This document shows positions 1,111 through 54,011 of a stretch of 64,000 nucleotides of DNA, piece by piece. This stretch comes from an uncultured Spirochaetota bacterium. Its GTDB lineage: Bacteria; Spirochaetota; Spirochaetia; SZUA-6; Fen-1364. Position 1 is the stretch's first letter, and every line of letters begins with the position of its first letter. The stretch is from contig CAVUXE010000029.1 in assembly GCA_963745235.1 (NCBI GenBank), forward strand, positions 128,001-192,000. Direction: 5' to 3'. The notes below the pieces were generated by a model. The model did no database searches, was not told the origin of the DNA, and saw only the letters and a program-made list of their open reading frames with translations. The translations under genes and the position numbers were made by a program.

Positions 1111-2891
1111 TCAGCTTTTCGGCATCATCCCTTCGTAGACCACTTTTTCATCTCCATGCAGCGTGACAGTGAACCCGTCCTCCAGGATGGCCATGGCGCC
1201 GGGCACCGAGGCGATGACCGCGACATCGCTCGTCTTGCTTCGGATCTGCTCCTCGCTCAGGTACGAGGACTCTTCCAGGACGATGCCGCTGAGGCCGGTG
1301 AGGAGCGGCAGGAAATCCGGGGTCAGGAACCGGGCCAGGAGGATCTCCGAGCCGTCATGCTTCAGCCTGAGCTCCGCATCCAGGGCGTCCTCCACCCGCA
1401 CGATCCTGCCCGGACGGTAGCCGCCGAAGCCGCGCTGCGCCCTTGGCCAGCACGTTGCCGACGAAGTGGACCCTGATGGTGTTGAGCATGATGGGGGAGT
1501 GCAGCGGGATGCCCGCCACGATGACCACCTTGTCGAATGTTCTTCACCAGCCCCTTTTCCATGGCGGCGGCGAGGGCGTTGTTCTGCATGGCATCGGAAT
1601 CTTCGCCAAGATCGGCGAACAACAGGGGCACGATGCCCCAGTACAGGAGAAGCCGTCCGCTGCACGGCTTCGGACGGCGTGACGGCGATGATGTCCTGCG
1701 AGGGGCGGTACTTGCTGATCAGCCGCGGCGTGTTGCCGTGCAGGGTCGGGGCGATGATCGCCGGACGCGTGGATCTCGCGCGCCACCAGGAACGCGCTGC
1801 GGGTGACCGACTGCGCCATGTCCTCGCTCGGATCATCCAGGCGGAAGAACCGTGCGCACGCGTGACTCGTACTCGGGGGAGGCCTCCACGGTCCGCGCGA
1901 TGGAGTCCATGACCTGCACCGCCTGCACGGGGTATTTGCCGCTTGCCGTCTCCCCGGACAGCATCACCGCGTCGGAGCCGTCGAAGATGGCGTTGGCGAC
2001 GTCGGTGGCCTCCGCCCGCGTGGGGCGCGGATTGTAGATCATGGAGTCGAGCATCTGCGTGGCCGTGATGACGGTCTTGTTCTGGTCGTGGCACTTGAGG
2101 ATGATCCGCTTCTGCACCAGGGGGATTTCCTCCGTGGGAAGCTGCACGCCCAGGTCGCCGCGGGCGATCATGAGCCCGTCGGAGACGCGGATGATCTCGT
2201 CGATGTTGTCCACGCCCTCCTGGTCCTCGATCTTGGCGATGATGTGCATGTGGGAGCCCTCCGCCAGCAGGATCTGGCGGATCTCCAGGATGTCGTCAGG
2301 CTTGCGCACGAAGGAGGCGGCGACGAAATCCATGTCCTGCTTGCACCGCGAAGTCGAGGTTGTCCCTGTCCTTCTCCGTGACTGCCGGGCAGCCGGCTCT
2401 TGATGCCGATGATGTTCACGTTCTTGTGGGACCCCAGCTGGCCACCCGTGCGCACGACGCACGCGGGTCACCCGGCCCTCCACAGCGAAAACTTCCAGGT
2501 CGATGAGCCCGTCGGCAATGAGGATGTGCTTCCCCGGGGCTGACCTGGTCCGGCAGGTCCTCGTAGGTGAGGCTGATCCGCTCCGCGGTGCAGGGGGAGT
2601 CATCCGCCGCCACCATGACCTCGGTCCCCGGGTGCAGCTCGATAGCTCCCGCCGTCCGCGATGATTCCCGTGCGCACCTCGGGCCCCTTGATGTCGATGA
2701 GAAGCGCCACGGGGATGCCCGTCGCGCCGGCTGGCCTCTCTCACCCTGGCGATCATGGCGGCGTGGTAGTCGTGGTCCCCGTGGGCCATGTTGAACCGGG
2801 CCACGTTCATGCCCGCCTCCAGGAGGCGTGAGAGGACCCCGACGTCCTCCGTGGCGGGGCCGAGCGTGCACACGATGCGCGTTTTTCTCAC
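1111..2891 (-). CDS. pyk: Pyruvate kinase with C-terminal PEP-utiliser-like extension, several frameshifts
   Basis: [54 protein letters not shown] and VMLSGETA motifs spread over several frames. GTG start at 2891. Confidence 0.9.
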
Positions 2892-2923
2892 GCTGGCGAT
2901 AGTAGGAAGGGAGCGGCAGGGGG

Positions 2924-3810
2924 TCAAGGTGGGGTGAGCACCGCACCCTTTGGGCGCGGCGGAAGAGAGCCAATGACAGCCCCCGCGATTATGAGCGCCA
3001 TGGCGGCGGCGGAAACGGCGGTGAAGGGTTTGCCGCCGACTGCCACCAGCAGCAGCGTGGAAAGCAGCGGCGTCAGGTAGGAAAGGGAGCCTATCACCCG
3101 CGGGTCTCCACGCTTCAAAGAAGCATCCCAGAGGAAGAATGCCGTTCCCATGGGGCCGAGCCCGAGCAGGAGGAGAAACAGCCAGTCGGCGCCCTGGATC
3201 GCTCGAAAGCCCCCGGGGCCTGATTCCGCGAGAAAGACCCCGAGGGCCAGCAGGCCGGAGCACAGGCAGAACCCTCCGACGGCTCCGCTTCGAAACGGGG
3301 GAAGGCGCTTGGTGAGAAGTGAATAGAGGGCCCAGATCAGGGCCGCCGCGGCTGCCGCAAGATAGCCCGGAAGGTTGACGGCATCCAGGCTGATCGATCC
3401 GCCCGTGACAATCAGCCCGGCCCCCGCCAGCCCGGCCAGGACGCCAAGGATGTGCCGCGGCCGCAAGCCGTAGCCCCTCAGGACCACGGGAGAAAGGACG
3501 ACAATCAGCAGGGGCCACAGGTAATTGATGAGGTTTGCCTCCACGGTGGGGGCGTTGCGAAACGCCGTGAAGAGAAGGAAATGGTAGCCGAATATGCCGC
3601 CCGCCCCGACGCAGAACGTCCTCACCGGGACCCTCCAGTCCCGTCACCCTGAGAAGCCCGATTGCCCCGCCGACGCTCAGGGCAACACCGGTGACGAGCA
3701 GCGGCGGCAGTTTCACAACACGTGATCCCAGGAGGGCAAGAAAGCCCCACAGCCCGATGGCGGAAAGAGCCAGGAGCGTGGCGGCCGGACCTCCGGGTAG
3801 TGTCCTTCAT
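2924..3810 (-). CDS. DMT/EamA family transporter (YddG-like), frameshifted
   Basis: Hydrophobic, with [12 protein letters not shown] and [11 protein letters not shown]. The N-terminus is pieced together from ATG 3810 (MKDTT...) and KLPPLLVTG. Confidence 0.8.
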
Positions 3811-5055
3811 GCTCGTGCCGTCCACGCCGGGAGCTTCTCCAGGGCCTCGAGGACCAGCCGGGCACAAGCGTCGCGCTCCGCACCCACGGCATCGCTGCCC
3901 CAGATCCGGGAAAGGAGCTCCAGCGGAGGCCCGGGCTCTTTTTCCACCGCCCCCGCGAAGGAGAGAGCGGCAGCCGCGCCGAGCGCCATTGCCCGGGGCT
4001 CGATCCCCTGTTCCATCGCAATCCGCATTGTCCCAAAAAGCCGGTCACTCCAGCCGAGCTTTCTCACCGGGTCCCTGATGATCCGTTCCACGCTGTCGTG
4101 CAGCCACGGATTTGTCATGCGCTGGAGGAGGTCCTCGGCATATGCGGACCAACCGGGCAGGCGTAAAAAGCGGCTCTCCACCGGCCGCTCCCCCGTGTTT
4201 TCTCACGAGCGCTGCCCCGGATTCTTCCAGGAATGCCTGTCCACCCAGGGAAAGGAGTGCAAAGTCCTGCCTGATGGTGCTCATCACCGAATGGCCCCGG
4301 AGTCGGGCGAGGTATCCCAGCAGGGCGTGGATGGCGTTGTGGCCGTAGAGCTTGGCCTCCTCGAAGGGAAGCAGATCGGTCTTTTCCTCGAAGACCCGGA
4401 TTCCCCGAACGAAGCCGGGCAGCGTCACGCGGGACACGAGTATCCTGTTGAACTCCTCCACCAGGACGCACTTGTTGAAACCGGGGACGAGAGGCGAGAG
4501 GCCCAGCTCCCTCATTTCTCTTTCCGAGCTGATCACTCCGCTCATTTTCCCGATGACCGTGTTGAGGACCTGCAGGCCTGAGAGATCACGGCCGGATGAC
4601 CGGTTGGCAACTTCTTTCGAAAGCTTCTCAGCGGCAAAGTTGTCGTTTTCCGCCGTATAGATGATCCTCTGCCTGCCGGGGATCGCCCCCTCCGCCAGTA
4701 TGGCCGCTATGGAGGAGTCGCCGCCGGCGGAATACAATGAGACGCTGGGGACAGCTGTGGCCATTTCCTCTGAATCACGGACTGCTGCAACCAGCTCTTT
4801 CCTGTCCGCCGGCACGCGCGGGTTGCAGAGCCTGATGCCGGACAACTTCTTCGCTCGAACCCCGTCACGGCCGGCGACGTTGATCGTAACCGAGCTCCCG
4901 TTTGTCCGCACGGCATCCACGAGCCCCTGGTCCACCTCCGCGACAGTCAAGCCATCGAAGCTGCCGGATTCGATTGCCTCGCACAGCATCAGGCCCGCCT
5001 GGATTGGTCCGAAGCCGAACCCGACAAAGCGTCTGCCCCTTACCGTTTCTCCCAT
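3807..5055 (-). CDS. Mannitol-1-phosphate/altronate dehydrogenase-like oxidoreductase, frameshift near 4160
   Basis: N-terminal FVGFGFGPIQAG Rossmann motif, TAEN, EEAKLYGHNAIHA, and RMTNPWLHDSVERIIRDPVRKLGWSDRL resembling the MtlD C-terminus. Confidence 0.65.
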
Positions 5056-5099
5056 GCCGCGCAAAATAGCACGGGAAGGAAGGCGAGAAAAGCGGCCCG

Positions 5100-5696
5100 C
5101 TACCAGTCGATGGCGATTCCAGCCGACAAAGTGACCTGAACGTTTCCCAGGGGGTAGCTGCTGATGGATGGTGCCGGCGGCGAGGTCATGAAAGGCGCGT
5201 AGGACACTTTGCCGGAAACGAGAAAGCCGCTGAGATCGAGGGACAGGCCCGCGGCGACAAAGGGATAGATGGAAAGGTACAGGTTGCCGGTGGCATCGCC
5301 CGTCCACTGATCCAGATACACACGCCCCGCGCAGCCCACCCCGGCCTGGATGAAAGGGTCCAGGAAGTATCCGCTTCGGAAGGGGTGGTAGCTGAGGAAG
5401 AGCGGCTGTGTCATCCAGTCCACCCACCAGGGCCCCTGCGGCGTTCGAGAGAAGCTTGCGCCGTACTGTCCTCCGAATCCCACTCTTCCAATGATCACTT
5501 CCCAGCCCACGCCGCCGAAGGGGGGCTGGCCGGGGCTCGAGAAAGTGTCTATAATCTGCTGGGCGCTGGGTCCCTTCAAATAGTCCGCTTGAAGGTTGCC
5601 CGTCAGGTGAACGGAACCCGCGAATGCAGGGGTCCCGGATGCGGCAATGGCCAACGCGAGCATCGCGGCGGTGATGGCAAAAGCCCTGAACTTCAT
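5100..5696 (-). CDS. Exported hypothetical protein, possible small outer-membrane beta-barrel
   Basis: Sec signal peptide (MKFRAFAITAAMLALAIA...AFA), amphipathic aromatic strands, terminal Trp (AGIAIDW), RBS GGAGGAGG. Confidence 0.7.
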   Translation of the reverse strand: MKFRAFAITAAMLALAIAASGTPAFAGSVHLTGNLQADYLKGPSAQQIIDTFSSPGQPPFGGVGWEVIIGRVGFGGQYGASFSRTPQGPWWVDWMTQPLFLSYHPFRSGYFLDPFIQAGVGCAGRVYLDQWTGDATGNLYLSIYPFVAAGLSLDLSGFLVSGKVSYAPFMTSPPAPSISSYPLGNVQVTLSAGIAIDW

Positions 5697-5730
5697 GAAA
5701 AGCCTCCTCCGAAGATCGTGATGTAATTTC

Positions 5731-5780
5731 GAACACCGGGTGCGCGGCCGAGTGTCACGGCGTGGCGTTTTTCGTGTTAC
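5731..5780. promoter_or_regulatory. Symmetric bidirectional ECF-type promoter candidate
   Basis: AACAC(5732-36)-N15-GTGTCAC(5752-58)-N15-GTGTT(5774-78). Each strand reads GTGwCAC-N15-GTGTT, followed by an RBS and start codon. Confidence 0.6.
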
Positions 5781-5808
5781 AGAGATTGATGAGCGGGAGA
5801 AGAAGCTT

Positions 5809-6294
5809 TTGGCAGTCGACGTGGAGAGTCTCTACAGGAAGTACGGGCCCATGGTGCTCCGCAGGTGTCGTTCTCTCCTGCTCGACGAAGAACAGGCCCT
5901 GGACGCCATGCAGGAGACCTTCGTGAAGCTCATCCGCTATCGTGAGAGGCTCACCGACAAGGCCCCTTCCAGCATGCTGTACTGCATCGCGACGAACGTG
6001 TGCCTGAACATGATGCGTAGCTCGCGCCGCCGGCCCCAGTCTGCCGGTGACGACGCCCTGGATCGCATCGCCTCCTCGGAGGACGTTGAGGCGCGCGTCC
6101 TTGACCGCCATCTCCTGGACAGCATCTTCGGCAGGGAGCGGGCCTCCACCCGGACCATGGCTGTGCTGCATTACGTGGACGGCATGACGCTGGAGGAAGT
6201 CGCGAAGCACGTCGGGCTGTCTGTGTCCGGGGTGCGGAAAAGGCTGCGCCTGCTCAAGGAGCGCACCCGCGCCCTGGGGGAGGCGTCGCCGTGA
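5809..6294 (+). CDS. ECF RNA polymerase sigma-70 factor
   Basis: Region 2 (ALDAMQETFVKL, SMLYCIATNVCLN) and region 4 (GMTLEEVAKHVGLSVSGVRKRL). TTG start at 5809 behind GGGAG, in frame with ORF 5740..6294. Confidence 0.9.
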   Translation: MAVDVESLYRKYGPMVLRRCRSLLLDEEQALDAMQETFVKLIRYRERLTDKAPSSMLYCIATNVCLNMMRSSRRRPQSAGDDALDRIASSEDVEARVLDRHLLDSIFGRERASTRTMAVLHYVDGMTLEEVAKHVGLSVSGVRKRLRLLKERTRALGEASP

Positions 6295-7157
6295 AGCGGA
6301 TATCCGATCTTCTCCTGGAGCAATACGTCCTCGGTGAGCTGCCTCCGGAGGTTGCTGGAGAGGTTCGTGAGGAGCTCGCACGGGATCCTTCCCTGCGGGC
6401 CCGACACGAGTCAATCATCAGGTCCGACAAGGAAATCCTGGAGCGTTACCCTCCGGCCGACATTGCAGAGTCCGTTGGAGCAAGGCTCCGGGAAAAACAG
6501 AAACAGCCGGCGGATGACAGACCGGCAGATGGAGAGCAGGCCGCCGAAGGCCCAGGCGGAGGGAGCGGCGGAATCTCATCCAGCCTGGAGCCCGCCGGGC
6601 GTTGGGCGCTGCAGCTGGCAATCGGTCTTCCCGCGGCTGCCATTGTTCTCCTGGTCTTTTCATTCTTCATTTTCCGTGAACGCCTGGCCCCGGACGAAAC
6701 CAGGATGAAAGGCCTCTCCCCCCATTTGACCGCGTTCCTGAAGACCGCGAAGGGCGCGCAGGACCTCGCCCCCGGTTCCCTCGTTGGACGGGGCGACGTG
6801 ATCCAGCTCAGCTACACAGCCGGGGAAGCCAGGTTCGGTGTCATCCTCTGGGTTGACGGGCGCGGGGCAATCACGTGGCTCCTGCCCCCGGGCTACAACG
6901 GGTCCCCGCGCGGCGCTCCGCTTCTGGACCGGCAGGGACAGGTGATCCTTCCCACCGCATACGAGCTGGACGATGCTCCGGGGTTTGAACGGTTCTTCTT
7001 TGTCTACTCGGAGAATTCCTTTGACGTGGCCGTCGCAGCGGACGCAGCGCGCGCTCTTTCTTCGCGCGCGGGCTCCGCCGAAAAGCTGGACCTTGCCCTG
7101 CCTGCGGGGGTGAGGCAGTACTCCCTTCTCCTGAAGAAACGGGGCCCGACGCCATGA
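6291..7157 (+). CDS. Putative membrane anti-sigma factor with extracytoplasmic DUF4384-like domain
   Basis: Overlaps the sigma stop (GTGA). N-terminal LLEQYVLGELP anti-sigma-like helix, one TM segment, then TRMKG, GDVIQLSY and ELDDAPGFERFFFV. Confidence 0.7.
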   Translation: MKRISDLLLEQYVLGELPPEVAGEVREELARDPSLRARHESIIRSDKEILERYPPADIAESVGARLREKQKQPADDRPADGEQAAEGPGGGSGGISSSLEPAGRWALQLAIGLPAAAIVLLVFSFFIFRERLAPDETRMKGLSPHLTAFLKTAKGAQDLAPGSLVGRGDVIQLSYTAGEARFGVILWVDGRGAITWLLPPGYNGSPRGAPLLDRQGQVILPTAYELDDAPGFERFFFVYSENSFDVAVAADAARALSSRAGSAEKLDLALPAGVRQYSLLLKKRGPTP

Positions 7158-9409
7158 GGACCCGGGCGCTCCTGGCCGCGGTCCTTGCATGCGCCGTGCT
7201 GCTGCCTGCCGCCGCGGAAGAGCCGCTTCCCCTGCGCAGGTTCGCCCTCGTCGCCGGCTCCAACGACGGCGGACCCCAGCTTGTGCGCCTGAGATACGCC
7301 GAGTCTGATGCCCGCTCGTTCGCGGACGTCATGGAGGAGCTGGGCGGGGTGCGCTCGGAAGACCTGGTGCTCGTTGTCGGCCCGGACCTCTCGCGGTTGC
7401 AGTCCGCGTTCCTCCGCGTCCAGCAGATGGTGAACGCCGTCTCGGGGAGCCAGGAGCGCAGCGAGCTCATCGTCTACTATTCCGGGCATTCGGATGACGA
7501 GGGCCTGATCCTGGGGGCCGAGCGTTTTGCATGGGAGGCGCTCAGAAACCAGATCAGCGGCATCCAGGCGGACGTGAAAGTGGCTATCCTGGACTCCTGC
7601 TCTTCCGGATCCCTTACACGGGCCAAGGGAGGAGTGGCTCGGCCGGCATTTCTCTTCGATGCCTCCGCGGACATGAAGGGCCACGCGTACCTGACATCGA
7701 GCTCCGCGGAGGAGGCCGCCCAGGAGTCCGACAGGATAGGCGGCTCCTTCTTCACGCATTACCTGATCTCGGGCCTGCGGGGAGCGGCGGACACGGTGGG
7801 GGACGGGGTGGTCACGCTGAACGAGGCGTACGCCTTTGCCTTCCAGGAAACGCTTGCCTCCACGGAAAAGACGCAGTACGGACCCCAGCATCCGGCCTAT
7901 GACATCAACCTGACGGGCTCGGGCGACCTGGTCCTCACGGATCTCAGGGCCGCCTCCGCGCGGTTGGCCGTTGCTGAAGACGTGGCCGGCCGGCTTTACT
8001 TGCGCAACGACCGCGGGGCCCTTGCCGTGGAGCTGAACAAGGTGGAAGGTCAGCGCGTGGAGCTGGGCCTGGAGCCGGGCACCTACAACGTCCTGCTGGA
8101 CGCCAGGACGGGCCGGCTGGGCACTCAGCTTCGCATTGCGGCGCACCAGCGTTCCCTGCTCTCACTCTCCTCTTTTCACAGGGTATCGGTTGACCGGGCT
8201 GCTGCCCGGGGCGGGGCCGGGTATGCGCCTGCGGATGGCCAATCGGAGGATCAGACCCGGCAGAATGACCCCGTGGCGGCGGCCGCCGCCATGGGGGCAG
8301 CGGTCGGAGCGGCCGTCGGAAAGGCAGTTGCGACGGCAATCACGACAACGGTGGACGCCGTGGGTGGGCACCGCTCCTCCTCTGCTCCGCCGGATGAGGG
8401 GGCGCCGTCGCCGGCCGCCACCGAGCAGAGCTCACAGGACCAGCGCTACCAGCCGTTCCACTTCACCCTGCTGCCCGACATCACTGACGGGGTGTTCGCT
8501 TCCCGGGACAACCATTCGATCACTTTCAATCTCCTCGTCGGCGTTTCCTCATCGACGCACGGATTCGAAGTGGGGAGCCTTGCCAACTTCGAGTCGCGCG
8601 ACATGGTGGGATTCCAGGCAGCGGGGCTTGGCAACGTGGTCCTCGGGGACACCAGCGGCTTCCAGGGCGCCGGGCTCGTGAATATCGTTGGCGGCGATGT
8701 GAGATTTGTCCAGGCGGCGGGTCTGGCCAACGTGGGGATGGGAGACGTTCACGGCGCGCAGGTCGCAGGGCTCTTCAACTGGGCCAAAGAGGGGGTCTGG
8801 GGCGCCCAGATATCGGGCATCGGCAACTGGGGCGGCGATGTCAGGGGCCCGCAGATCAGCGTGATCAACATAGCGGACACGGTGTCAGGAGCGCAGATCG
8901 GAATAGTGAACATTGCCGGGCACGTTTCGGGGGTCCAGGTCGGAATCGTGAACTTCTCTCGGGAGATAGACGGCGTGCCGCTCGGGCTCGTTTCCATCGA
9001 GGAAAGAGGGCGGCACAAAATGGATGTCTGGTGGGACTCGGACGGGAGCTGGAACGGCTCCATCTCCCTGGGCAGCAGGTATTTCTACACCGTTTTCAGC
9101 GCTGGATGGGTTCCCTATTCCGCACCCGCCGCGTGGACCCTGGGGGCCGGCGTCGGTGTCCGCGCGCCCCTGGGCCGTCTCTTTGCCGACATGGATGTGT
9201 CAGTCCTTGCCGACCAGGGCTCTTTCAGGGAAGCGGCAAGCCCGAACCCTTCCGACTTCCATCCAAGGCTGCGCGCCGTGCTGGGGATCCCGATTTTCGG
9301 CGAGCTCGCAGTCGAGGCGGGAGTTGTGGTGAAGATGAACCTGCCAGACGGCGTGGTCTCCACGGTCACGACGTACACCCCGGAGCTGATCTGCGGACTT
9401 CAGATATAG
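7154..9409 (+). CDS. Exported caspase-family (peptidase C14) protein with C-terminal repeat region
   Basis: Signal peptide, RRFALVAGSNDGG, LRYAESDA, His-Cys dyad YYSGHS / ILDSCSSG, GGSFFTHYLISGLRG. Tandem GxQxAGLxN and GAQIGIVN repeats (LA_2272-like). Confidence 0.85.
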   Translation: MRTRALLAAVLACAVLLPAAAEEPLPLRRFALVAGSNDGGPQLVRLRYAESDARSFADVMEELGGVRSEDLVLVVGPDLSRLQSAFLRVQQMVNAVSGSQERSELIVYYSGHSDDEGLILGAERFAWEALRNQISGIQADVKVAILDSCSSGSLTRAKGGVARPAFLFDASADMKGHAYLTSSSAEEAAQESDRIGGSFFTHYLISGLRGAADTVGDGVVTLNEAYAFAFQETLASTEKTQYGPQHPAYDINLTGSGDLVLTDLRAASARLAVAEDVAGRLYLRNDRGALAVELNKVEGQRVELGLEPGTYNVLLDARTGRLGTQLRIAAHQRSLLSLSSFHRVSVDRAAARGGAGYAPADGQSEDQTRQNDPVAAAAAMGAAVGAAVGKAVATAITTTVDAVGGHRSSSAPPDEGAPSPAATEQSSQDQRYQPFHFTLLPDITDGVFASRDNHSITFNLLVGVSSSTHGFEVGSLANFESRDMVGFQAAGLGNVVLGDTSGFQGAGLVNIVGGDVRFVQAAGLANVGMGDVHGAQVAGLFNWAKEGVWGAQISGIGNWGGDVRGPQISVINIADTVSGAQIGIVNIAGHVSGVQVGIVNFSREIDGVPLGLVSIEERGRHKMDVWWDSDGSWNGSISLGSRYFYTVFSAGWVPYSAPAAWTLGAGVGVRAPLGRLFADMDVSVLADQGSFREAASPNPSDFHPRLRAVLGIPIFGELAVEAGVVVKMNLPDGVVSTVTTYTPELICGLQI

Positions 9410-9437
9410 CGATTCACCGCGATCTCGGGCGCCTGTC

Positions 9438-10358
9438 CTACAACTTTCGGACGGTGATCGGTCCGCTGGTCGTGGTGACATCCATGCGGCCGGAGCCGCT
9501 GCCCACCCTTCCCTCGAGCCAGTTGCGCCGCTGCTCCGTGGCCGCGAGGGGGAGCTCACAGGAGATCCCTCCGCTGACTGAATGCAGTGAGACAATGGCG
9601 TCGAGACCCGAAGGCGCGTCCAGCCCGACTCCGCCGGACACGGTGCGCACGCTGACGGAGCCGCCCTGGTCCAGGGACGCGATCCGCCCTTCGATGGACC
9701 CCGACACCGTATGCGCGTCCAGCCTGCTGCCGGCGAACACGAACTGAACCGATCCGCTGGTGGAGGATGCGTCCAGGTTTCTTGCGCCGCTGGTCTCAAT
9801 GGAACCTGATATCGTCGAAAGATTCTGATCGATGCCCTCGCCCACGCCCCGCACCGTGACGCTTCCACTGACAGAGTGCGCCTCGATTGTCTTGATCCCC
9901 CGGGGCAGGGTGATGACGAAGGAGACCGTACCGGCGCTCATGACGAATCCGCCCGCGTGGCGCTCCTCGATCAACAGCCGGTCACCGCGCTTCTCAATGG
10001 CGACGTTCAGGTTTTCCATTGCCGCGGGAAACATCGCGGTTTTCACGGCGTGGATCCCTACGTTGCTCCCCGTGTCGTTGCCCGGCGTGGGGCCCTGGAT
10101 GTCGATCCCGCCGGCGATGTTCCGGATCTCCACCGTCGTAAAGTCGCCGGAAACCTGTTCCTCCTTCTCTTCCCGCAGCCATCCGCCTCGTTGAAAAGAC
10201 CTTTCGTTCCAGAACCTTTTCATCTCAGGGCCGCCCGCCGGAAAGGAGAAGGCTCGTCCGCGGAAAATGAGGGCAATGCTGGCAATGACCACGACGAGCA
10301 CCATCGCCCCCATGGTGATGCCGACGATGTCTATCGGGCTAAGTCTTGTTCGATTCAT
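9438..10358 (-). CDS. DUF4097 family beta-strand repeat protein
   Basis: N-terminal TM followed by repeated (S/T)(V/I/T)SG(S/G)(V/I) units. Confidence 0.75.
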   Translation of the reverse strand: MNRTRLSPIDIVGITMGAMVLVVVIASIALIFRGRAFSFPAGGPEMKRFWNERSFQRGGWLREEKEEQVSGDFTTVEIRNIAGGIDIQGPTPGNDTGSNVGIHAVKTAMFPAAMENLNVAIEKRGDRLLIEERHAGGFVMSAGTVSFVITLPRGIKTIEAHSVSGSVTVRGVGEGIDQNLSTISGSIETSGARNLDASSTSGSVQFVFAGSRLDAHTVSGSIEGRIASLDQGGSVSVRTVSGGVGLDAPSGLDAIVSLHSVSGGISCELPLAATEQRRNWLEGRVGSGSGRMDVTTTSGPITVRKL

Positions 10359-10620
10359 CCATCTTCTCCATTTCGCGCCTTGCCACGCGGTCCACGAGGG
10401 TACCCGACTGGTAGAGGAAGGCGGAAAGGAAATGCGATGCCACTCCGATTCCCCATCCGAGGGCGGGCCACAGCCACCACTGGTATCCGCCCCAGGTCAC
10501 GTTATTGATGAGGGCCAGCCCTCCGATAACCAGCAGGTAGATTGCCGCGTGGCGTATGAAGCCCACCTTCCGTTCGGCGATCTTTCTTGCCAGCTTGTAC
10601 TTCTCATTCGCATCAGACAT
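10339..10620 (-). CDS. 2TM domain protein
   Basis: GFIRHAAIYLLV...INN...WWLWPALGWGIGVASHF. ATG at 10620. Confidence 0.8.
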   Translation of the reverse strand: MSDANEKYKLARKIAERKVGFIRHAAIYLLVIGGLALINNVTWGGYQWWLWPALGWGIGVASHFLSAFLYQSGTLVDRVARREMEKMDESNKT

Positions 10621-27130: not shown

Positions 27131-28609
27131 ATGGCGGAACAGATGTATGAGCTGCAGCGGGATGTCTCGCAGAACCACCGGCTCTACAACAAGGACCTGG
27201 CGCCCATTGAGATCAAGCGGCGCAAGTGGGGCACCTACAACTTCGCTGCGCTCTGGATCGGTATGGCGCACTGTGTCCCTACGTATCTGCTGGCAGGAGG
27301 GCTGATCGCCCTGGGCATGGACTGGAAACAGGCCCTGTTCACCATCACCCTGGGCAACTTGATCGTCCTGGTCCCGATGCTCCTGAATGCACACCCCGGC
27401 ACGAAATACGGGATTCCCTTTCCCGTCTTTGCCCGCGCCTCGTTCGGGGTTTTCGGGGCGAACATCCCCGCCCTCCTGCGCGCCATCGTGGCCTGCGGAT
27501 GGTTCGGGATCAACACCTATATCGGCTCGCTTGCAATCGACATCTTTCTTGGCAAGCTGATACCGGGATGGAGCGCCATCGGAGGCGCAACGACATTCGC
27601 CTTCGGAATGACGGTGCATGGGGCCATCGCGTTCATGATCTTCTGGATCTTCCAGATCTACATCATTCTCCGCGGCATGGATGCGGTGCGCGTATTCGAG
27701 AACTGGGCGGCACCTTTCGTCATCATCCTCGGCCTTGCCCTGGTAATCTGGATGATCACCGCCGCCAAGGGCTTCGGTCCCCTTCTTTCGCAGCCCAGCA
27801 AGTTCCACAGCTTTGGCGACTATTTCAAGGTATTCATTCCCGCCCTGACCGGCATGGTCGGGTTCTGGGCAACCCTGTCTCTGAACATCCCGGACTTCAC
27901 CCGGTTCGGAAGAGGCCAGAAAGAGCAGATGATCGGGCAGGCCATCGGCCTTCCCCCGACCATGCTGGTCTTCTCCGCGTTTGGCGTCATCATCACATCC
28001 GCATCAGCCATCGTGTTCGGTGAGGCCATCTGGGACCCGGCTGTGCTCCTGGGCAAGTTCAGCAACCCCATCACCCTGGTCCTGGCGCTGGTCGGTCTGG
28101 TAGTTGCCTCCTTGTCGGTGAACATTGCCGCCAACACCGTCTCCCCGGCGAACGACTTCTCGAACACCATCCCCAAGCTCATCAGCTTCAGGACGGGCGG
28201 AGTCATCACGGGGATAATCGGCATCCTGATCATGCCCTGGAGGCTTCTTGCTGATCCCAGCGGATACATCTTCGGCTGGCTGGGAACGTACTCGGGCTTC
28301 CTCGGACCCATCGCGGGGGTCCTGATCGCCGACTACTGGGTCATCAGGAGGACAAGGCTCAACCTGGATGATCTGTACACGGAAAAGGGAGAGTATGCTT
28401 TCTCGCGGGGCTTCAATATCAGGGCAATCATTTCCCTTGTCGTCGGCGTGATTGTTGCTCTGATCGGTCTCGTGGTGCACCCGCTCAGGTTCCTCTTTGA
28501 CTACGCGTGGTTCGTCGGCTTCGCGGCCGCGTTCCTGACTCACTGGGCCCTGATGTCAGGGCAGGTTGCGGCGCCGGCTCGGCGGACCCCGGCAGCAAAG
28601 CCTGCCTGA
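27131..28609 (+). CDS. NCS1 nucleobase:cation symporter (PydP-like)
   Basis: WIGMAHCVP, KYGIPFPVFARASFG, FWATLSLNIPDFTR, NIAANTVSP; RBS AAGGAGG. Confidence 0.9.
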   Translation: MAEQMYELQRDVSQNHRLYNKDLAPIEIKRRKWGTYNFAALWIGMAHCVPTYLLAGGLIALGMDWKQALFTITLGNLIVLVPMLLNAHPGTKYGIPFPVFARASFGVFGANIPALLRAIVACGWFGINTYIGSLAIDIFLGKLIPGWSAIGGATTFAFGMTVHGAIAFMIFWIFQIYIILRGMDAVRVFENWAAPFVIILGLALVIWMITAAKGFGPLLSQPSKFHSFGDYFKVFIPALTGMVGFWATLSLNIPDFTRFGRGQKEQMIGQAIGLPPTMLVFSAFGVIITSASAIVFGEAIWDPAVLLGKFSNPITLVLALVGLVVASLSVNIAANTVSPANDFSNTIPKLISFRTGGVITGIIGILIMPWRLLADPSGYIFGWLGTYSGFLGPIAGVLIADYWVIRRTRLNLDDLYTEKGEYAFSRGFNIRAIISLVVGVIVALIGLVVHPLRFLFDYAWFVGFAAAFLTHWALMSGQVAAPARRTPAAKPA

Positions 28610-28631
28610 TTCCGGGAGCCACCAGGCTCAC

Positions 28632-28668
28632 AAAAAAGAGCGCCGGGTCACCCCGGCGCTTTTTGTTT
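28632..28668. terminator. Bidirectional Rho-independent terminator
   Basis: Stem AGCGCCGGG/CCCGGCGCT with loop TCAC, flanked by an A-run and a T-run, between convergent genes. Confidence 0.8.
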
Positions 28669-28764
28669 ACGCGGTCCGTGGCCTCAATGTCCCTGGCGCG
28701 CTCGGAGCCCCTGGACTCGGCGCGGCTCCGCCATCCCTCGCGCGCCCTCCGGGCGTGCTATGGG

Positions 28765-29634
28765 CTAGGGCAGCTGCTCGCCGATCTCGGCATACAGCTC
28801 GGGCCGCCTGTCCCTGAAGAACTGCCAGCCGTCGCGGACCTCGCGGATCTGCTCGAGGTCCAGGTCTGCAACCACGACCTCGTCCTTGTCCTCCGAGCCC
28901 TTGACCAGGATCTTTCCGCGCGGATCCACGAAGTAGCTCGATCCGTAGAACTTGCCGAACTCCCAGGGCTTCTCCAGGCCGACGCGGTTGTTTGCGCCGA
29001 TGAACACGCCGTTGGCCACCGCCTGGGCGGGCTGCTCGAGCTCCCACAGGTACTTGGATTTGCCTTCCGTTGTCGCCGACGGGTTGAAGAGGATCTCCGC
29101 GCCCTTGAGGGCCAGGATCCTGGCGCACTCGGGGAAATGGCGGTCGTAGCATATGTAGATCCCCACCTTCGCATACGCGGTCTGGAACACGGGGAAGGGA
29201 AGGGTGCCGGGCTTGAAGTAGAACTTTTCCCAGAAACCGGGGTAGGTGTGCGGGATGTGCACCTTCCTCATCTTGCCAAGGTATTTTCCGTCAGCGTCGA
29301 GAACCGCGGCGCAGTTGTAGTACACGCCCTCCTGCTCCATCTCGTAGATCGGGAGCACGAGCACCATGCGGAACTTTTTCGCGAGAGGGGCCATCCTTTC
29401 CGTGATAGGGCCAGGCACGGGCTCGGCTGTCCGATACCACTTGATATCCTGTTCTGCGGCGAAATACGGGCCGTGAAACAGCTCCTGCAGGCAGAGGATC
29501 TGGACTCCCTTCTTTCCCGCATCCTCGACGAGGCCGACGTGCTTCTGGATCATTGCCTCCTTGATTTCCTGGAGGGAACCCTCGTGTCGGGGGGTGGAGG
29601 CCTGGATGAGTCCGCAGCGAATGACTCGGGGCAT
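28765..29634 (-). CDS. Nitrilase-family N-carbamoyl-beta-alanine amidohydrolase (beta-ureidopropionase)
   Basis: Glu-Lys-Cys triad: LQELF, RKVHIP, ICYDRHFPE; FWEKFYF. Confidence 0.85.
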   Translation of the reverse strand: MPRVIRCGLIQASTPRHEGSLQEIKEAMIQKHVGLVEDAGKKGVQILCLQELFHGPYFAAEQDIKWYRTAEPVPGPITERMAPLAKKFRMVLVLPIYEMEQEGVYYNCAAVLDADGKYLGKMRKVHIPHTYPGFWEKFYFKPGTLPFPVFQTAYAKVGIYICYDRHFPECARILALKGAEILFNPSATTEGKSKYLWELEQPAQAVANGVFIGANNRVGLEKPWEFGKFYGSSYFVDPRGKILVKGSEDKDEVVVADLDLEQIREVRDGWQFFRDRRPELYAEIGEQLP

Positions 29635-29666
29635 GGGTAACTCCTTTTGGTAGATCTTGGTGGCTC

Positions 29667-29733
29667 ATTATAGAATGAATGAATTCCATTCGGCAACATT
29701 TTTATTTACAACCGGCCTTCGACGTCGTATACT
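29667..29733. promoter_or_regulatory. Divergent sigma70 promoters
   Basis: Plus strand TTTACA(29705)-N17-TATACT(29728). Minus strand TTGCCG-N18-TATAAT(29672-29667), with a GAATG-N5-CATTC inverted repeat across its spacer. Confidence 0.55.
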
Positions 29734-29925
29734 GGGGCGGTCCCGCAGGGGATTCGGCATGATGTATCGGCTCCGTGTGGCGTGCGCAACACGGGGTCCC
29801 ACGGCCCTGCGACGGACCGGAAATAAATCCTTTCTCCGAAGCGCATTGATCCACAGCTTGCCCGTGCGCAGGAACTCTTTCCGCCCGGCAGGCGATGAGA
29901 TTCTTCTTTTCAAGGAGGCTCCACC

Positions 29926-31242
29926 GTGAGCTACGCCGAGCGCTTCAAAGTGATGGAGAAGGGCCTGGATCTGGCCCAGGCCATGGCGGAGGCCGACCGC
30001 TGTCTTCTCTGCCATGATCCCCCCTGCTCCCAGGGATGTCCCGCGGAGACAGACCCCGGCACTTTCATCAGAAAGCTGCGCCTTCGCAACGTAACGGGCG
30101 CCATCCGCACGGTGAAGGAGAACAACCCGCTGGGCGGCGCATGCGCGGTGTTGTGCCCCACGCCCCGGCTGTGCGAAAAGGCATGCAGCGCCACGGGCAT
30201 TTCCCGCCCCGTTGACATTGGAAAGATCCAGAGGGCGTTGATCGAGCATTCCTGGAAAACCGGTGCACCGGCCCTCCAGAAGGCGGCTGCGCGCCCTGAA
30301 AAAGTTGCCGTTGTCGGTTCCGGGCCGGCGGGACTCTCCTGCGCCGCCGAGCTGGCACGGCACGGATTTGCCGTCACCGTCTTCGAGGAGCGCGCGGAGC
30401 CGGGAGGCGTCATCCGCTACGGAGTTCCCGCCTACCGGTTCGACGCGGACTTCCTGAAGCATGAGCTTGCAGATATCGAGTCGCTGGGCGTGAAGTTCGT
30501 TTGCGGCACGCGCGTGGACGGGGCCAGGGGCGCGGAGAAGCTGCTCTCCCAGGGATACCAGGCCGTGTTTCTTGCGCCCGGCCTCTGGGGTGCGGAGAGG
30601 ATTCCCGGAGGAGACGCAACGAAAGGCGTGTATTCCTCCGTGGAGTTTCTGGCCGCTCTTCGCGAAGGCCGCATTGCCGAGATGGCCGGCCAGATCGAAG
30701 GCAGGCAAGTGGCCGTGATCGGCGGTGGAAGCGTTGCAATGGACTGCGTCCAGTGTGCCCTCAAGCTGGGGGCGCAGGATGCGTTCCTGGTCTATCGCAG
30801 GTCTTTCTCCCAGATGCCGGCTGAGGAGGATGAGCGGCTGGCCGCTCTTCGACTGGGCGCTCATTTCCTGGCGTTGAACCAGCCCGTCAAATACCGGGTG
30901 GACGCGAAGGGAATGCTCACAGGCATTACACTCGCCCGCACGCGCCTGGGCCAGGAGGATTCCTCCGGCCGGCGCGCTCCCACCGAGATCCCCGGATCCG
31001 AGTGGGTCCTGGAAGCCCAGATCGCAATAGAGGCCATCGGCAACAGGACGGATTCCGCGGACTGGTCGGGGGCCATCAAGGTGGACCGCACAGGCCTCAT
31101 CCTTGCGGACTCCAGGACGCGCAAGACATCGGCAAAGACGATCTTTGCCGGCGGCGACATTGTTCGGGGGGCGGGTCTCGTTGTGGAGGCCGTGCAGGAT
31201 GGGAAGCTTGCGGCCCGCGCAATCCGGGAAGCTCTGAGCTGA
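29926..31242 (+). CDS. preT: Dihydropyrimidine dehydrogenase subunit PreT (GltD-like)
   Basis: RCLLCHDPPCSQGCP, GSGPAG, IGGGSVAMD, FAGGD; upstream of preA. Confidence 0.87.
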   Translation: MSYAERFKVMEKGLDLAQAMAEADRCLLCHDPPCSQGCPAETDPGTFIRKLRLRNVTGAIRTVKENNPLGGACAVLCPTPRLCEKACSATGISRPVDIGKIQRALIEHSWKTGAPALQKAAARPEKVAVVGSGPAGLSCAAELARHGFAVTVFEERAEPGGVIRYGVPAYRFDADFLKHELADIESLGVKFVCGTRVDGARGAEKLLSQGYQAVFLAPGLWGAERIPGGDATKGVYSSVEFLAALREGRIAEMAGQIEGRQVAVIGGGSVAMDCVQCALKLGAQDAFLVYRRSFSQMPAEEDERLAALRLGAHFLALNQPVKYRVDAKGMLTGITLARTRLGQEDSSGRRAPTEIPGSEWVLEAQIAIEAIGNRTDSADWSGAIKVDRTGLILADSRTRKTSAKTIFAGGDIVRGAGLVVEAVQDGKLAARAIREALS

Positions 31243-31253
31243 GGGGAGATGCC

Positions 31254-32549: not shown

Positions 32550-32563
32550 GAGGAGGGTGGGCC

Positions 32564-33955: not shown

Positions 33956-33967
33956 GAATGGCAAGCG

Positions 33968-34000
33968 GCGCCTCCCCGGGCCGGGGGGGCGCGTTCTTTC
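33968..34000 (+). terminator. GC hairpin after hydA (terminator or mRNA stabiliser)
   Basis: GCGCCTCCCCG/CGGGGGGGCGC followed by GTTCTTTC. Confidence 0.45.
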
Positions 34001-34024
34001 TCACCCTGACACGGAGGAATACCC

Positions 34025-35267: not shown

Positions 35268-35286
35268 GCAAGAGAGAGGAGATTCG

Positions 35287-39430: not shown

Positions 39431-39865
39431 CTATTTCTTTCCCTCCAGGAGCGCCTTGAGGTCCTTGAGCGCCGCAACCTCGGACTGCATCTGCCTGGTG
39501 ATCATGGGGTCCATCAGCTTTGCAAGTCCCTTCGGCTGGAAGTCGAGGACGAACGTCACCGAGGTCGCGTTGCCCTGCTTCTCGAGCTTGAATGTCCCCG
39601 CGGGCCGGGCAGGCCCCGCGGTGACTTCGAACCTGATGAGAGCACCCGGGACGCACTCGACGACCTTGTAGTCCGCATCGATCCGTCCGGTCGGTCCCTT
39701 CATACCCTGCTTGAAGGCGGCGCCGACTCCGGCCGGAGTTCCTGGCACTTTCCCGATGTCCAGGACGCCCTTGCGCCACCGGGGGTTGTTCGTTCCGTCC
39801 AGCAGGAAGTCGTAGACTTCTCCGGCTGGCCTGTCAATGATGATCGAGCTCTCAGCGTGCGCCAT
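39431..39865 (-). CDS. SRPBCC family protein
   Basis: IIIDRPAGEVYDFLLDGTNNPRW; C-terminal LKALLE helix. Confidence 0.8.
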   Translation of the reverse strand: MAHAESSIIIDRPAGEVYDFLLDGTNNPRWRKGVLDIGKVPGTPAGVGAAFKQGMKGPTGRIDADYKVVECVPGALIRFEVTAGPARPAGTFKLEKQGNATSVTFVLDFQPKGLAKLMDPMITRQMQSEVAALKDLKALLEGKK

Positions 39866-41150
39866 TTTCTGCCTCCTGTCTCTGCGCTTTTTCGAGCTTA
39901 TTGTGAAGGAACGCCCGTTCCGTTTCGTTTTGCACGAGCCCAAGCGCCTCGCGATAGAACTCAGCGGCTTTCATCGGATCGCCGGCGCGCTCATGCAGCT
40001 CACCGAAAGTCGCCGGGAGCAGGTAGTACGACTGAAGGCCCGGTTCGCTCCTGATCTTTTCCAGCGCCGCCAGCCCGGCCGCGGGCCCCTCGAGCATGGC
40101 CACGGCAACCGCCCGGTTCAGCGCGGCAACGGGTGAGGGATGAAGATCCATGATCGCGTCATAGTAGAAGAGAATCCTGCGCCAGTCCGTATCCTGATAC
40201 CTCGCGGCGGCCGCGTGGCATGCGCTGATGCCGGCGAGCAGGTGGTATTCGCTGAGAGTGTGTCCCGTGCCGGCGCGGCCGAGGTGCAGAAGCCCTTCCT
40301 GGATGAGCCGGTCGTTCCAGAGGGAACGGTCCTGCTCCGCCATCAGGAGGAGGTTCCCGTGAGGGTCGGTCCGCGTCTGAAACCGGGACGCCTGGAAAAG
40401 CATGAGGGCAAGGAGCGCGTGCACCTCGGGCCGGTCTCCGATGCGATGACCCGCCAGGAGCGTACACAGGCGGATGGCCTCCGCACACAGGTCCTCCCGA
40501 ACAAGGTTGCGGCCTTCACCCACCGTGTAGCCGTCGTTGAACAGGAGATACAGTACCCGGAGCACGGCTTCGAGGCGGGGAGCGCAATACTCTGGAGGCG
40601 GAAGCGCGAAGGCCACCCGCTCCGCGGCCAGCCTTCTTTTCGCCCTGACCAGGCGCTGGGCAATTGTCTCCGGGGAGACGAGGAATGCGCGGGCAATCTC
40701 TGCGACCCCGAAGCCGCTGACGGTCTTCAGTGTCAACGCTATCTGCGCTTCGCGGGACACCACGGGATGGCAGCACAGGAACATCATCGTGAGCTGGTCG
40801 TCCCCGAAGGGGTCCTCCAGGAACCGCTCCGGATCAGCAAAGACGGGGCTCCCCGCGCCTCCAGTCTTGCGGATCTTCCCGTGGAGAACCTTCTCCCGCC
40901 GCAGGATATCGAGGGCCCGGTTCCGTGCAACCGTGGCAAGCCAGCCTCCCGGGTTGTCCGGCACGCCCCGGTAGGGCCATATCTGCAGCGCCGCCACAAG
41001 GGCCTCCTGGACGACATCCTCGGCGAGCTCAATGCGCTCCACGCCGAACAGGCGCGTCAGCATGGACACCAGCTCTCCCGCCTTGTGGCGGAAAAGGTTC
41101 CCGACAAGGCTCTCCACGGGCGCTTCCGCCGCGGCGGGGACAGTGGTCAC
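39852..41150 (-). CDS. ECF42-type sigma factor with C-terminal TPR-like extension
   Basis: AEDVVQEA, FLCCHP, AQRLVRAK, LYLLFNDGY, QDRSLW, SPVAALNRAVA; follows a YciI gene. Confidence 0.88.
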   Translation of the reverse strand: MTTVPAAAEAPVESLVGNLFRHKAGELVSMLTRLFGVERIELAEDVVQEALVAALQIWPYRGVPDNPGGWLATVARNRALDILRREKVLHGKIRKTGGAGSPVFADPERFLEDPFGDDQLTMMFLCCHPVVSREAQIALTLKTVSGFGVAEIARAFLVSPETIAQRLVRAKRRLAAERVAFALPPPEYCAPRLEAVLRVLYLLFNDGYTVGEGRNLVREDLCAEAIRLCTLLAGHRIGDRPEVHALLALMLFQASRFQTRTDPHGNLLLMAEQDRSLWNDRLIQEGLLHLGRAGTGHTLSEYHLLAGISACHAAAARYQDTDWRRILFYYDAIMDLHPSPVAALNRAVAVAMLEGPAAGLAALEKIRSEPGLQSYYLLPATFGELHERAGDPMKAAEFYREALGLVQNETERAFLHNKLEKAQRQEAENGAR

Positions 41151-41509
41151 TGCTCCCTCGCGTTGTCGGGATCTATTTCCCGGACCTCCACGGTGCCTCC
41201 GTAAGGATAGATAGGGCACGCCTGGGCGAGCTTCGCGGCTTCGTCGTAGTCGTTGGCCTCCACGACAAAGTAGCCGCCGATTGTTTCCTTGGTCTCGGGA
41301 TAGGGGCCGTCCATGACGATCCTGCCGTTGTCCATCCGCACGGTGCGCACCCCGTCGTCCTTGAGCTTTTCTCCCCCGCGCAGCCTGCCCTGGCTCATCA
41401 GGGAACGAGCCCAGTCCTCGTACTTCTGGATGGTCCGCTGGATCTCCTCCGGAGCCATTTCCCGAAACCCGGCCGAGCTTCCCCGCATGAAAAAGATGTA
41501 TTTCGCCAT
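41147..41509 (-). CDS. YciI/DGPF family protein
   Basis: DGPYPETKETIGGY, VEVRE. Confidence 0.88.
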   Translation of the reverse strand: MAKYIFFMRGSSAGFREMAPEEIQRTIQKYEDWARSLMSQGRLRGGEKLKDDGVRTVRMDNGRIVMDGPYPETKETIGGYFVVEANDYDEAAKLAQACPIYPYGGTVEVREIDPDNAREQ

Positions 41510-41551
41510 CTGCTTCCTCCCCCTGGACTCACCATGCGACTCACCCTGAAA

Positions 41552-41578
41552 GACGAACGCCGATGCCGAAAATCGACA
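41552..41578 (-). promoter_or_regulatory. ECF42-type promoter
   Basis: Minus strand TGTCGA-N17-CGTC upstream of the YciI gene, matching the published ECF42 consensus TGTCGA / CG(A/T)C. Confidence 0.7.
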
Positions 41579-41589
41579 CCCAGGGCAGT

Positions 41590-42891: not shown

Positions 42892-42906
42892 CAAGGCAAA
42901 GATACT

Positions 42907-44222: not shown

Positions 44223-44306
44223 ATCTGCCTCCTTGTTCTTGGCTCCGTCCCAGTATAGCCGCCGCGCCGGCGGGTGTCGAGGCCGCGACATTTTTCTTTG
44301 ACTCCC

Positions 44307-44335
44307 TTGACATGCGCGATTTCTTTCCATAGTCT
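44307..44335 (+). promoter_or_regulatory. Sigma70 promoter of hppA
   Basis: TTGACA-N17-TAGTCT. Confidence 0.6.
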
Positions 44336-50555: not shown

Positions 50556-50557
50556 GG

Positions 50558-53668: not shown

Positions 53669-53674
53669 AGGGCG

Positions 53675-54007: not shown

Positions 54008-54011
54008 CTCG

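Follow-up and report, generated by a model that had tools for sequence, protein, structure and literature searches.

The window analysed here, a 64,000-nt stretch of DNA from an uncultured Spirochaetota bacterium, carries at 5809-9409 of its forward strand an operon that encodes a sigma factor of the extracytoplasmic function (ECF) type, a single-pass anti-sigma-like protein and an exported caspase-like protease of the metacaspase type. Three open reading frames (ORFs) follow each other on this strand, the sigma ORF having two possible starts at 5740 and 5809, and at both junctions the start codon shares four bases with the preceding stop (Table 1). Indeed, the sigma and anti-sigma genes overlap by GTGA (gccGTGAagc, 6291-6294) and the anti-sigma and caspase genes by ATGA (gccATGAgg, 7154-7157). 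The caspase gene ends on a TAG at 9407-9409 and 28 bases separate it from a convergent gene. Judged from sequence, a conserved ECF-type promoter serves all three genes, which are transcribed together and coupled in translation. The family is large and uncharacterised, and the window copy is an ordinary member of it: when one genome per species was scanned with an alignment of 20 caspase homologues, at least 599 stretches matched, at least 571 of which encode a relative. All locus counts given below rest on the best 80 of these at least 571 relatives; the 80 loci come from Spirochaetota, Myxococcota and bins bearing old 'Proteobacteria' labels.

Table 1. Features of the sigma/anti-sigma/caspase operon and of the divergent gene, with their positions in the window.
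Feature	Position	Strand	Remarks
Secreted protein P0124, 198 aa	5100..5696	-	signal-peptide-like N-terminus; C-terminal ...AIDW
Divergent-gene promoter motif GTGACA-N16-GTGTT	5732..5758	-	-10 element ends 36 nt before ATG at 5696
Operon promoter motif GTGTCA-N16-GTGTT	5752..5778	+	-10 element ends 31 nt before TTG 5809
ECF sigma factor, 161 aa from TTG 5809	5809..6294	+	sigma-2 and sigma-4 regions only
Single-pass anti-sigma-like protein, 288 aa	6291..7157	+	model and alignment
Cytoplasmic four-helix N-terminal domain, residues 1-71, putative sigma-binding	6291..6503	+	AlphaFold2, alignment
Membrane-spanning segment	6603..6683	+	hydrophobic residues 105-128; modelled helix 112-131
Juxtamembrane R138-M-K140-G141, candidate cleavage site	6702..6713	+	alignment conservation
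Periplasmic beta-sandwich, residues 145-283, divergent DUF4384	6723..7139	+	AlphaFold2
Exported caspase-like C14 metacaspase-type protein, 751 aa	7154..9409	+	Pfam, alignments
Signal-peptide-like N-terminus, residues 1-21, AAA/EE	7154..7216	+	read from sequence
Caspase p20-like domain	7235..7903	+	His112 codon 7487-7489, Cys149 codon 7598-7600
Conserved beta-rich middle domain, residues ~255-350	7916..8203	+	alignment
Variable low-complexity linker	8210-8473	+	after the middle domain
About ten tandem 14-16-residue G-x-Q-x-x-G-x-x-N repeats, LA_2272 / VC2662 type	8516..8989	+	
C-terminal beta-rich domain ending ...GLQI, possible outer-membrane anchor	8996..9406	+	

The first protein is an ECF (group IV) member of the sigma-70 family, with sigma-2 and sigma-4 regions only and scores above the cut-offs of the family models: 50.4 bits for Sigma70_r2 (PF04542; cut-off 24, E 2e-13), 27.6 bits for Sigma70_r4_2 (PF08281; cut-off 25.7, E 2e-6) and 68.2 bits for the ECF superfamily model TIGR02937 (cut-off 42.9). 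Its closest solved sequences are SigL and SigE. TTG 5809, ahead of which GGGAG is found at 5795-5799, is taken as the real start because the forward-strand copy of the promoter motif described below falls inside the reading frame that begins at GTG 5740.

The second protein was modelled with AlphaFold2 on 43 orthologues (mean predicted local distance difference test score, pLDDT, 83.8). Its N-terminal domain, which contains the conserved motif PDxxLERxALGELP, is formed by helices at residues 6-13, 19-31, 33-52 and 55-71 (pLDDT ~ 97). A disordered linker follows the helix bundle, a low-confidence stretch (132-138) follows the membrane helix, and the beta-sandwich has a pLDDT above 90 for most of the domain. 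In the model this is the layout of a class I single-pass anti-sigma factor, with the gene directly downstream of the sigma gene, one membrane helix and an extracytoplasmic C-domain. Foldseek comparison of the model with PDB returned generic beta-sandwiches only, none of them at E<=0.001, a search of PDB sequences gave no significant match, and profile-profile comparison showed no similarity between this protein and the caspase.

The third protein is a C14 peptidase, as it scores 32.4 bits against Peptidase_C14 (PF00656; cut-off 21.4) and its catalytic dyad is intact. Alignments of 20 and of 43 relatives show His112 and Cys149 without exception. The motif YSGH[SG] is present in 75/75 locus ORFs, a count that is partly built in as the His motif formed part of the scan pattern; D[SA]CxSG, the Cys motif, was absent from that pattern and is present in 75/75 as well. 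The nearest solved sequences are plant metacaspase-4 and fungal metacaspase-1 (E ~ 9e-5), and the N-terminus, MRTRALLAAVLACAVLLPAAA/EE, resembles a signal peptide when read by eye. The score against NCBIfam NF047832 ('caspase, EACC1-associated type') is 59.9 bits and lies under the cut-off of 140; Pfam detected no SAVED, CHAT or TPR domain in the protein. The LA_2272 repeat model NF047436 (cut-off 25) is matched with 41.2 bits by the whole protein and with 49.6 bits by its C-terminal part, and a 42-nt tandem repeat lies at 8867-8953. No Pfam family was matched by separate sub-regions of the caspase even at E<=10, and its C-terminal domain has no PDB sequence match. The look-alikes of residues 430-751 belong to clusters auto-named 'putative outer membrane protein beta-barrel' (score 0.96) without a Pfam family, and the last residues of the protein alternate between hydrophobic and polar.

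The substrate pocket of the protease could be compared with that of characterised metacaspases. D52, S110 and D147 are invariant in 43 relatives, and D52, S110-G-H112 and D147-S-C149 align with LRGCVND, YSGHG and DSCHSG of metacaspase-4 (PDB 6w8s). In the passage on TbMCA2 of a review of clan CD peptidases (PMC4357240), the proposed S1 pocket consists of Cys92, Asp95, Ser156 and Asp211. The last three correspond to D52, S110 and D147 of the present protein, and Ser156 and Asp211 are located two residues before the catalytic His and Cys. A metacaspase-type acidic S1 pocket, with an Asp on helix 1, a Ser at His-2 and an Asp at Cys-2, hence appears to be present, and because D52, S110 and D147 are kept we infer specificity for Arg/Lys at P1, as for metacaspases and orthocaspases. 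An EF-hand-like loop, D213-E224 (DTVGDGVVTLNE, 7790-7825), was also seen by inspection, with no family model matching it; D213, V220 and T221 do not vary and E224 hardly does, and the orthologue at locus L075 has D-R-N-R-D-G-R-V-T-L-N-E at this place. The loop hints at a Ca2+ dependence such as that of metacaspases.

These results can be set beside an earlier annotation of the same DNA, made from the letters alone (the sequence-only reading). It had described three coupled genes with GTGA and ATGA overlaps, an ECF sigma starting at TTG 5809, and a signal-peptide-bearing C14 protease with a His-Cys dyad and C-terminal repeats, all of which the ORFs, junctions, family models and alignments bear out. 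Its one-TM anti-sigma-like protein (one membrane-spanning segment) stands as far as the single helix and the extracytoplasmic sandwich of the model are concerned, but family models give weak backing to the name 'anti-sigma': none is matched above its cut-off, and the NCBIfam anti-sigma model NF052375 gives 32.7 bits for a cut-off of 100. A few homologues bear the name RsiW or RskA in a source.

The sequence-only reading had also staked its proposal on the conservation of the triad in other genomes, and the triad is indeed conserved. By tblastn, an anti-sigma homologue lies directly upstream of the caspase gene in 70 of the 71 loci with room for it (> 900 bp upstream), and at the sole miss, L069, it was recovered by phmmer at 5e-22. 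A sigma gene precedes the anti-sigma gene in 59 of the 68 loci with room for both (> 1500 bp). The four-base overlap is kept at 55 of 75 anti-sigma/caspase junctions and at 39 of 59 sigma/anti-sigma junctions. In the nine loci where an adjacent sigma is lacking, all of Myxococcus/Pyxidicoccus type (L027, L032, L035, L044-L048 and L061), the anti-sigma/caspase pair is intact (9/9); in eight of them (not L027) the gene upstream is an unrelated ORF of 266-438 aa which is itself preceded by an NtrC-like regulator. The cognate sigma of these nine loci must be encoded elsewhere. The anti-sigma/caspase pair is the most tightly conserved link of the module.

The family is both large and old in appearance. 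The caspase search found 2291 proteins at E<=0.001 among 8000 candidates scored, and 5453 clusters (50% identity) were matched at E<=0.001 by a profile built on the periplasmic domain, 1786 of them at E<=1e-30, the best 150 matches all having the anti-sigma architecture. In a maximum-likelihood tree of the caspase domain of 43 proteins, all 18 Spirochaetota-labelled rows fall on one side of a supported branch (96/92), and the window protein is nearest that of L001. Such a split resembles what a long stay in two phyla would leave, and not the trace of recent mobility. An apparent anti-sigma/caspase fusion of 1069 aa at L075 (5143-8352) was rejected, as it contains an Arg/Pro-rich out-of-frame stretch indicative of a frameshift, most likely an indel of a long-read bin.

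Alignment of the DNA upstream of the sigma genes yielded a common motif, GT(G/A)(A/T)CA-N16-GTGTT (GTRWCA-N16-GTGTT), for which the window contains two matches against 0.01 expected by chance. One precedes the operon and the other the divergent gene P0124; the -35 elements of the two opposed promoters overlap in the palindrome GTGTCAC (5752-5758), and the same divergent arrangement is found in 8 close loci. Of 68 loci, 51 have the strict motif upstream of the first operon gene, no more than 200 nt from it, and 60 have a loosened form; the start codon usually follows at ~ 30 nt. At the loci without a sigma gene the strict motif stands directly before the anti-sigma gene in 8/9, the only match in L027 lying further downstream. 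No sigma-70-like promoter was found in 5000-10500. The sigma operon is hence predicted to be autoregulated by way of a conserved -35/-10 pair that is not of the sigma-70 type. Single further copies of the motif were observed ahead of envelope genes in some myxobacterial loci and may be regulon members or chance matches: they precede a stand-alone LA_2272-repeat protein (L068, 1138-2380), a CarboxypepD_reg+Plug receptor-like protein (L054, 289-2624), a lipoprotein-like ORF of 201 aa (L075, 3918-4545) and a pectinacetylesterase-like protein (L049, 3125-4461). These sites, together with one in L043, are single instances and serve as leads only.

The divergent gene is predicted to be a target of the sigma as well. 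P0124 has no Pfam or NCBIfam match, for Pfam even at E<=10, and by profile-profile comparison its family shows no similarity to the C-terminal domain of the caspase. A search of PDB sequences with the P0124 family and with the anti-sigma and caspase C-terminal alignments returned nothing significant. The language-model look-alikes of P0124 carry OMP_b-brl (score 0.97), a lead only, and the protein is likely a small outer-membrane beta-barrel. Its homologues adjoin the triad in 25 of the 80 loci, all on the spirochaete side and either divergent or downstream, and by our own reading the strict motif lies upstream of the homologue in 15 of those 25. Because the divergent gene has a motif copy and its homologues adjoin the triad, the unit has a fourth, spirochaete component: it consists of sigma, anti-sigma and caspase and, in spirochaetes, of the small secreted protein with the same type of promoter. 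The description of the module as 'stand-alone' in the sequence-only reading therefore needs amending.

The conserved operon suggests, without proving it, that the protease cuts the inhibitor and thereby switches the sigma on. The topology fits, with an envelope-located protease facing the extracytoplasmic domain of the anti-sigma, and a candidate site is found in the exposed linker of that protein, where R-x-K-G occurs in the context E-T-R138-M-K140-G141, 10-12 residues outside the membrane segment and next to the low-confidence stretch (132-138). The K and the G show no variation among 43 aligned relatives; KG is present in 74/74 locus ORFs and RxKG in 63/74; in a set of 150 mutually diverse representatives, 138 have the R, 148 the K and 146 the G. 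At the level of sequence, the putative basic-P1 pocket of the caspase and the R-x-K-G of the anti-sigma fit the idea of a site-1 protease. A site-1 cut near the membrane leaves a stub short enough for a site-2 protease, according to the RseA/RseP principle, and by analogy a cut at R-x-K-G would do the same.

On these grounds the following mechanism is proposed. The anti-sigma would hold the sigma by its cytoplasmic four-helix domain and expose its DUF4384-type beta-sandwich to the periplasm, where the sandwich would serve as the docking domain of the caspase. The exported caspase would be tethered at or near the outer membrane, probably by its C-terminal repeats and beta-rich domain, and would dock on the sandwich. 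Upon an envelope cue, possibly together with Ca2+, it would cut the anti-sigma at the juxtamembrane R-x-K-G; the short stub remaining would be removed by a site-2 protease and cytoplasmic proteases, and the sigma thus freed would increase the transcription of both its own operon and the small secreted protein. We favour the site-1 reading because a co-regulated and stoichiometrically coupled envelope pair comes together here with an intact protease of putatively basic specificity and, in the partner's exposed linker, a basic motif that is conserved. The view that the caspase serves the anti-sigma as its signal-gated site-1 protease, in an autoregulated ECF switch, is in our estimation the likeliest, with a little less than an even chance of being right. 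The detailed version, in which an outer-membrane-tethered metacaspase is dedicated to this task, docks on the DUF4384-type domain and cuts at R-x-K-G, is put forward as a possibility that is on balance doubtful.

Several known systems resemble the module in part. In E. coli, the sigmaE/RseA/DegS/RseP pathway carries out regulated intramembrane proteolysis of an ECF anti-sigma. As with sigmaE/RseA, the present operon appears autoregulated and its single-pass anti-sigma has a putative sigma-binding cytoplasmic domain and a periplasmic one, the proposed site-1 cut being outside the membrane; unlike there, the proposed site-1 enzyme would be a clan-CD cysteine protease instead of a serine protease, and it is co-encoded and translationally coupled with its presumed substrate. 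The 59 ORF translations of the window that were scanned with Pfam include none that is RseB-, DegS- or RseP-like. Cell-surface signalling (FecI/FecR/TonB-dependent transducer) shares with the module the order of sigma, anti-sigma and outer-membrane-associated protein, this last association being putative for the caspase, as well as the idea of a trans-envelope relay, but the three proteins have no FecR, STN, Plug or TonB-dependent receptor Pfam domain.

The sequence-only reading had drawn a comparison with accessory sets of type III CRISPR systems. In the type III-E Craspase, as outlined in the corresponding report (10.1101/2022.08.17.504292), the caspase-like Csx29 (TPR-CHAT) cuts Csx30 and thus releases RpoE/CASP-sigma, and some Csx30 C-terminal domains are DUF4384. 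Both systems combine a caspase-like protease, a sigma-binding inhibitor (a putative one in the present case) and an ECF-like sigma, Csx30 being cut in a linker, and the presence of DUF4384, the family weakly matched by the periplasmic domain of the anti-sigma, strengthens the analogy by a parallel that was absent from the sequence-only reading. However, Craspase is cytoplasmic, RNA-guided and cas-linked, whereas the present module has an exported protease and a membrane-spanning inhibitor, and the ORFs scanned gave no cas genes; the likeness is a conceptual one. The PCaspase of Haliangium ochraceum, in the outline given by its report (10.1101/2023.06.23.546230), is a C14 peptidase encoded with a sigma and a small partner that PCaspase cleaves, and the same can be said of the present gene set as far as a C14 peptidase, a sigma and a small partner protein are concerned. 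PCaspase is described there as cytoplasmic, activated by SAVED-CHAT after cyclic tri-adenylate (cA3) signalling and broad in specificity, cleaving the sigma itself, in a locus where the partner PCi is a CI-2-like inhibitor and a kinase is present; unlike that locus, the present one shows none of SAVED-CHAT activation, CI-2-like inhibitor, kinase or cytoplasmic protease. As the sequence-only reading had said, neither cas genes (among the 59 Pfam-scanned ORF translations) nor an array (by tandem-repeat search) are present. PADLOC gave no match for anti-sigma, caspase or P0124, and for the sigma three marginal matches only (best E 0.003). The module is thus not placed among the CRISPR type III protease/sigma sets (Craspase, PCaspase, CalpL/T/S), and the comparison holds as analogy only.

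Several observations weigh against the cleavage model or against parts of it. The match of the window anti-sigma to DUF4384 (PF14326) is of 14.3 bits for a cut-off of 27 (E 0.046), and the family is found at E<=0.01 in only 14 of 43 orthologues, at best with 3.7e-5. K140-G141 lies at the edge of the folded domain and may be conserved for a structural reason. The caspase is possibly anchored in the outer membrane, a lead taken from look-alikes and not a result. Co-transcription with the sigma is expected equally of a mere output gene, and more distant relatives, beyond the best 80, may be without the triad. No fused or longer forms of the periplasmic domain were found at E<=0.001, which is weak evidence, and a mirror-tree test did not discriminate, given that all domain distance matrices correlate (r 0.62-0.83) with similar partial correlations.

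The same conservation and coupling would serve a model in which the caspase is a partner of the anti-sigma and not its protease, the sandwich binding the caspase as inhibitor, chaperone or occupancy sensor after the models of RseB, of the TonB-dependent transducer of cell-surface signalling and of PCi. The real substrates of the caspase would then be other envelope proteins, and the sigma would be freed by a conventional site-1 protease or by a conformational change once the caspase is engaged or titrated away. The persistence of the anti-sigma/caspase pair without an adjacent sigma in nine loci speaks for such a partnership, as does a caspase domain conserved far beyond what a single site would need, with a mean pairwise distance of 0.41 vs 0.57 for the sandwich and many invariant non-catalytic residues; PCi moreover acts as a PCaspase inhibitor within a sigma-containing locus. 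On the other hand, an intact dyad, a pocket and a near-invariant basic motif in an exposed linker are what a relation between protease and substrate predicts, and the sandwich showed no similarity to known protease inhibitors by PDB sequence search or Foldseek. We place this partnership on the unlikely side, although it deserves serious attention.

It is distinctly unlikely, in our judgement, that caspase and small secreted protein are mere outputs of an envelope-stress sigma whose anti-sigma senses the cue alone through its sandwich, the caspase being a protease of envelope quality control or remodelling whose co-transcription serves co-regulation alone. Effector genes are common in ECF operons, the motif-bearing targets in the window are only the operon and the divergent secreted protein, and the sporadic extra motif sites precede envelope proteins (TonB-dependent-receptor-like, lipoprotein, LA_2272-repeat), all of which would suit such an output. 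Outputs are usually reshuffled between phyla, however, whereas here the four-base anti-sigma/caspase overlap extends across two phyla, and the pair remains intact in the loci whose sigma gene lies elsewhere. A reading of the module as a defence or programmed-death system akin to the CRISPR-associated caspase/sigma sets, in which the caspase would be the executioner, appears very improbable. Its appeal comes from the conceptual resemblance to Craspase/Csx30/RpoE and PCaspase/PCc-sigma/PCi and from a 2012 survey which, in its remarks on myxobacteria, speculated that their metacaspases act in developmental autolysis (PMC3501461). Yet the scanned ORFs gave neither cas genes nor arrays and PADLOC matched neither the caspase nor the anti-sigma; the protease is an exported one instead of a cytoplasmic one, housekeeping and metabolic genes flank the module in an order common to close relatives, and the caspase tree splits the two phyla cleanly, unlike that of a mobile defence island.

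Further genes of the window were seen through the same 59 ORF translations, which are a part of its ORFs. No other tandem array and no Rfam family were found in the window. The convergent gene downstream of the operon (9438-10358, - strand) encodes a DUF4097 'toastrack' protein; we leave it outside the module, as a matter of synteny only, because it stands beside the triad in just six close relatives. A pyruvate kinase gene (1111-3716, - strand) is split over overlapping frames, with the pyruvate kinase barrel at 1833..3716 and PK_C plus PEP-utilizers at 1111..2094. Since both halves are in one frame in the relatives L003, L006 and L007, a frameshift near 1760-1840 (pseudogene or assembly indel) is inferred. 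A second ECF-like sigma (39852..41219, within 39431-44330, - strand) has a C-terminal DUF6596 extension and adjoins a Polyketide_cyc2 protein, a PD40-repeat protein and a LiaF-like_C protein being encoded upstream; the GTRWCA-N16-GTGTT motif was not found at this sigma in 39431-44330. The region 27131-36615 contains a cluster resembling reductive pyrimidine or hydantoin catabolism, with a cytosine/purine-type permease, CN_hydrolase, two dihydropyrimidine-dehydrogenase-like subunits, an amidohydrolase, an M20 peptidase and a class-III aminotransferase. At 50151-59506 (- strand) lies a cluster for a membrane-bound hydrogenase / Mrp-type complex, where genes for a 4Fe-4S protein, NADHdh, Complex1_49kDa with a NiFeSe_Hases segment, Oxidored_q6, Oxidored_q2 and several Proton_antipo_M are found, and it is followed by MotA/MotB-like genes at 59559-61132.

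The association of metacaspases with sigma factors has been in print since 2012. According to the survey in question (Asplund-Samuelsson et al. 2012, PLoS One, PMC3501461), in its account of these operons, four of the five metacaspases of Myxococcus xanthus DK1622 are in predicted operons with sigma-70-family factors, and the same configuration occurs in Anaeromyxobacter, Haliangium, Sorangium, Ralstonia and Fibrobacter. That set very probably includes the myxobacterial loci of the present search (Corallococcus, Haliangium, Anaeromyxobacter and others). In the same account only the sigma is named, with no anti-sigma, protease export, promoter or mechanism, and spirochaetes are unlisted for the operon. 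The main text of the ECF reclassification paper (PMC7826278) contains no mention of 'caspase', and its supplement may describe such a group. In the literature, including that from 2013 on, no study was found that describes a module of sigma, anti-sigma and exported caspase, and LA_2272 and VC2662 appear only in surveys and one proteome list. The proteolysis of an ECF anti-sigma by a co-encoded clan-CD protease would be a variant of a known theme, under a cleavage reading that we consider almost as likely to hold as to fail.

Among the main routes by which bacteria transduce signals, ECF sigma factors are the third. To our knowledge, the protease that starts the destruction of the anti-sigma is unknown for most ECF groups, and bacterial caspase homologues are abundant, almost none of them with a known substrate or role. 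The module is large and unstudied and offers an unusually clean test, built on three genes with a single catalytic cysteine, a single candidate site and a single promoter. Should the cleavage model hold, it would add a new protease class to regulated anti-sigma proteolysis and link envelope signalling to the caspase/sigma logic of CRISPR type III systems. The detailed version, if true, would also provide the first defined physiological substrate for the exported caspase homologues of bacteria, and it would suggest that the combination of a caspase, a DUF4384-bearing sigma inhibitor and an ECF sigma is an old signalling unit, of which Craspase/Csx30/RpoE would be a cytoplasmic derivative or parallel.

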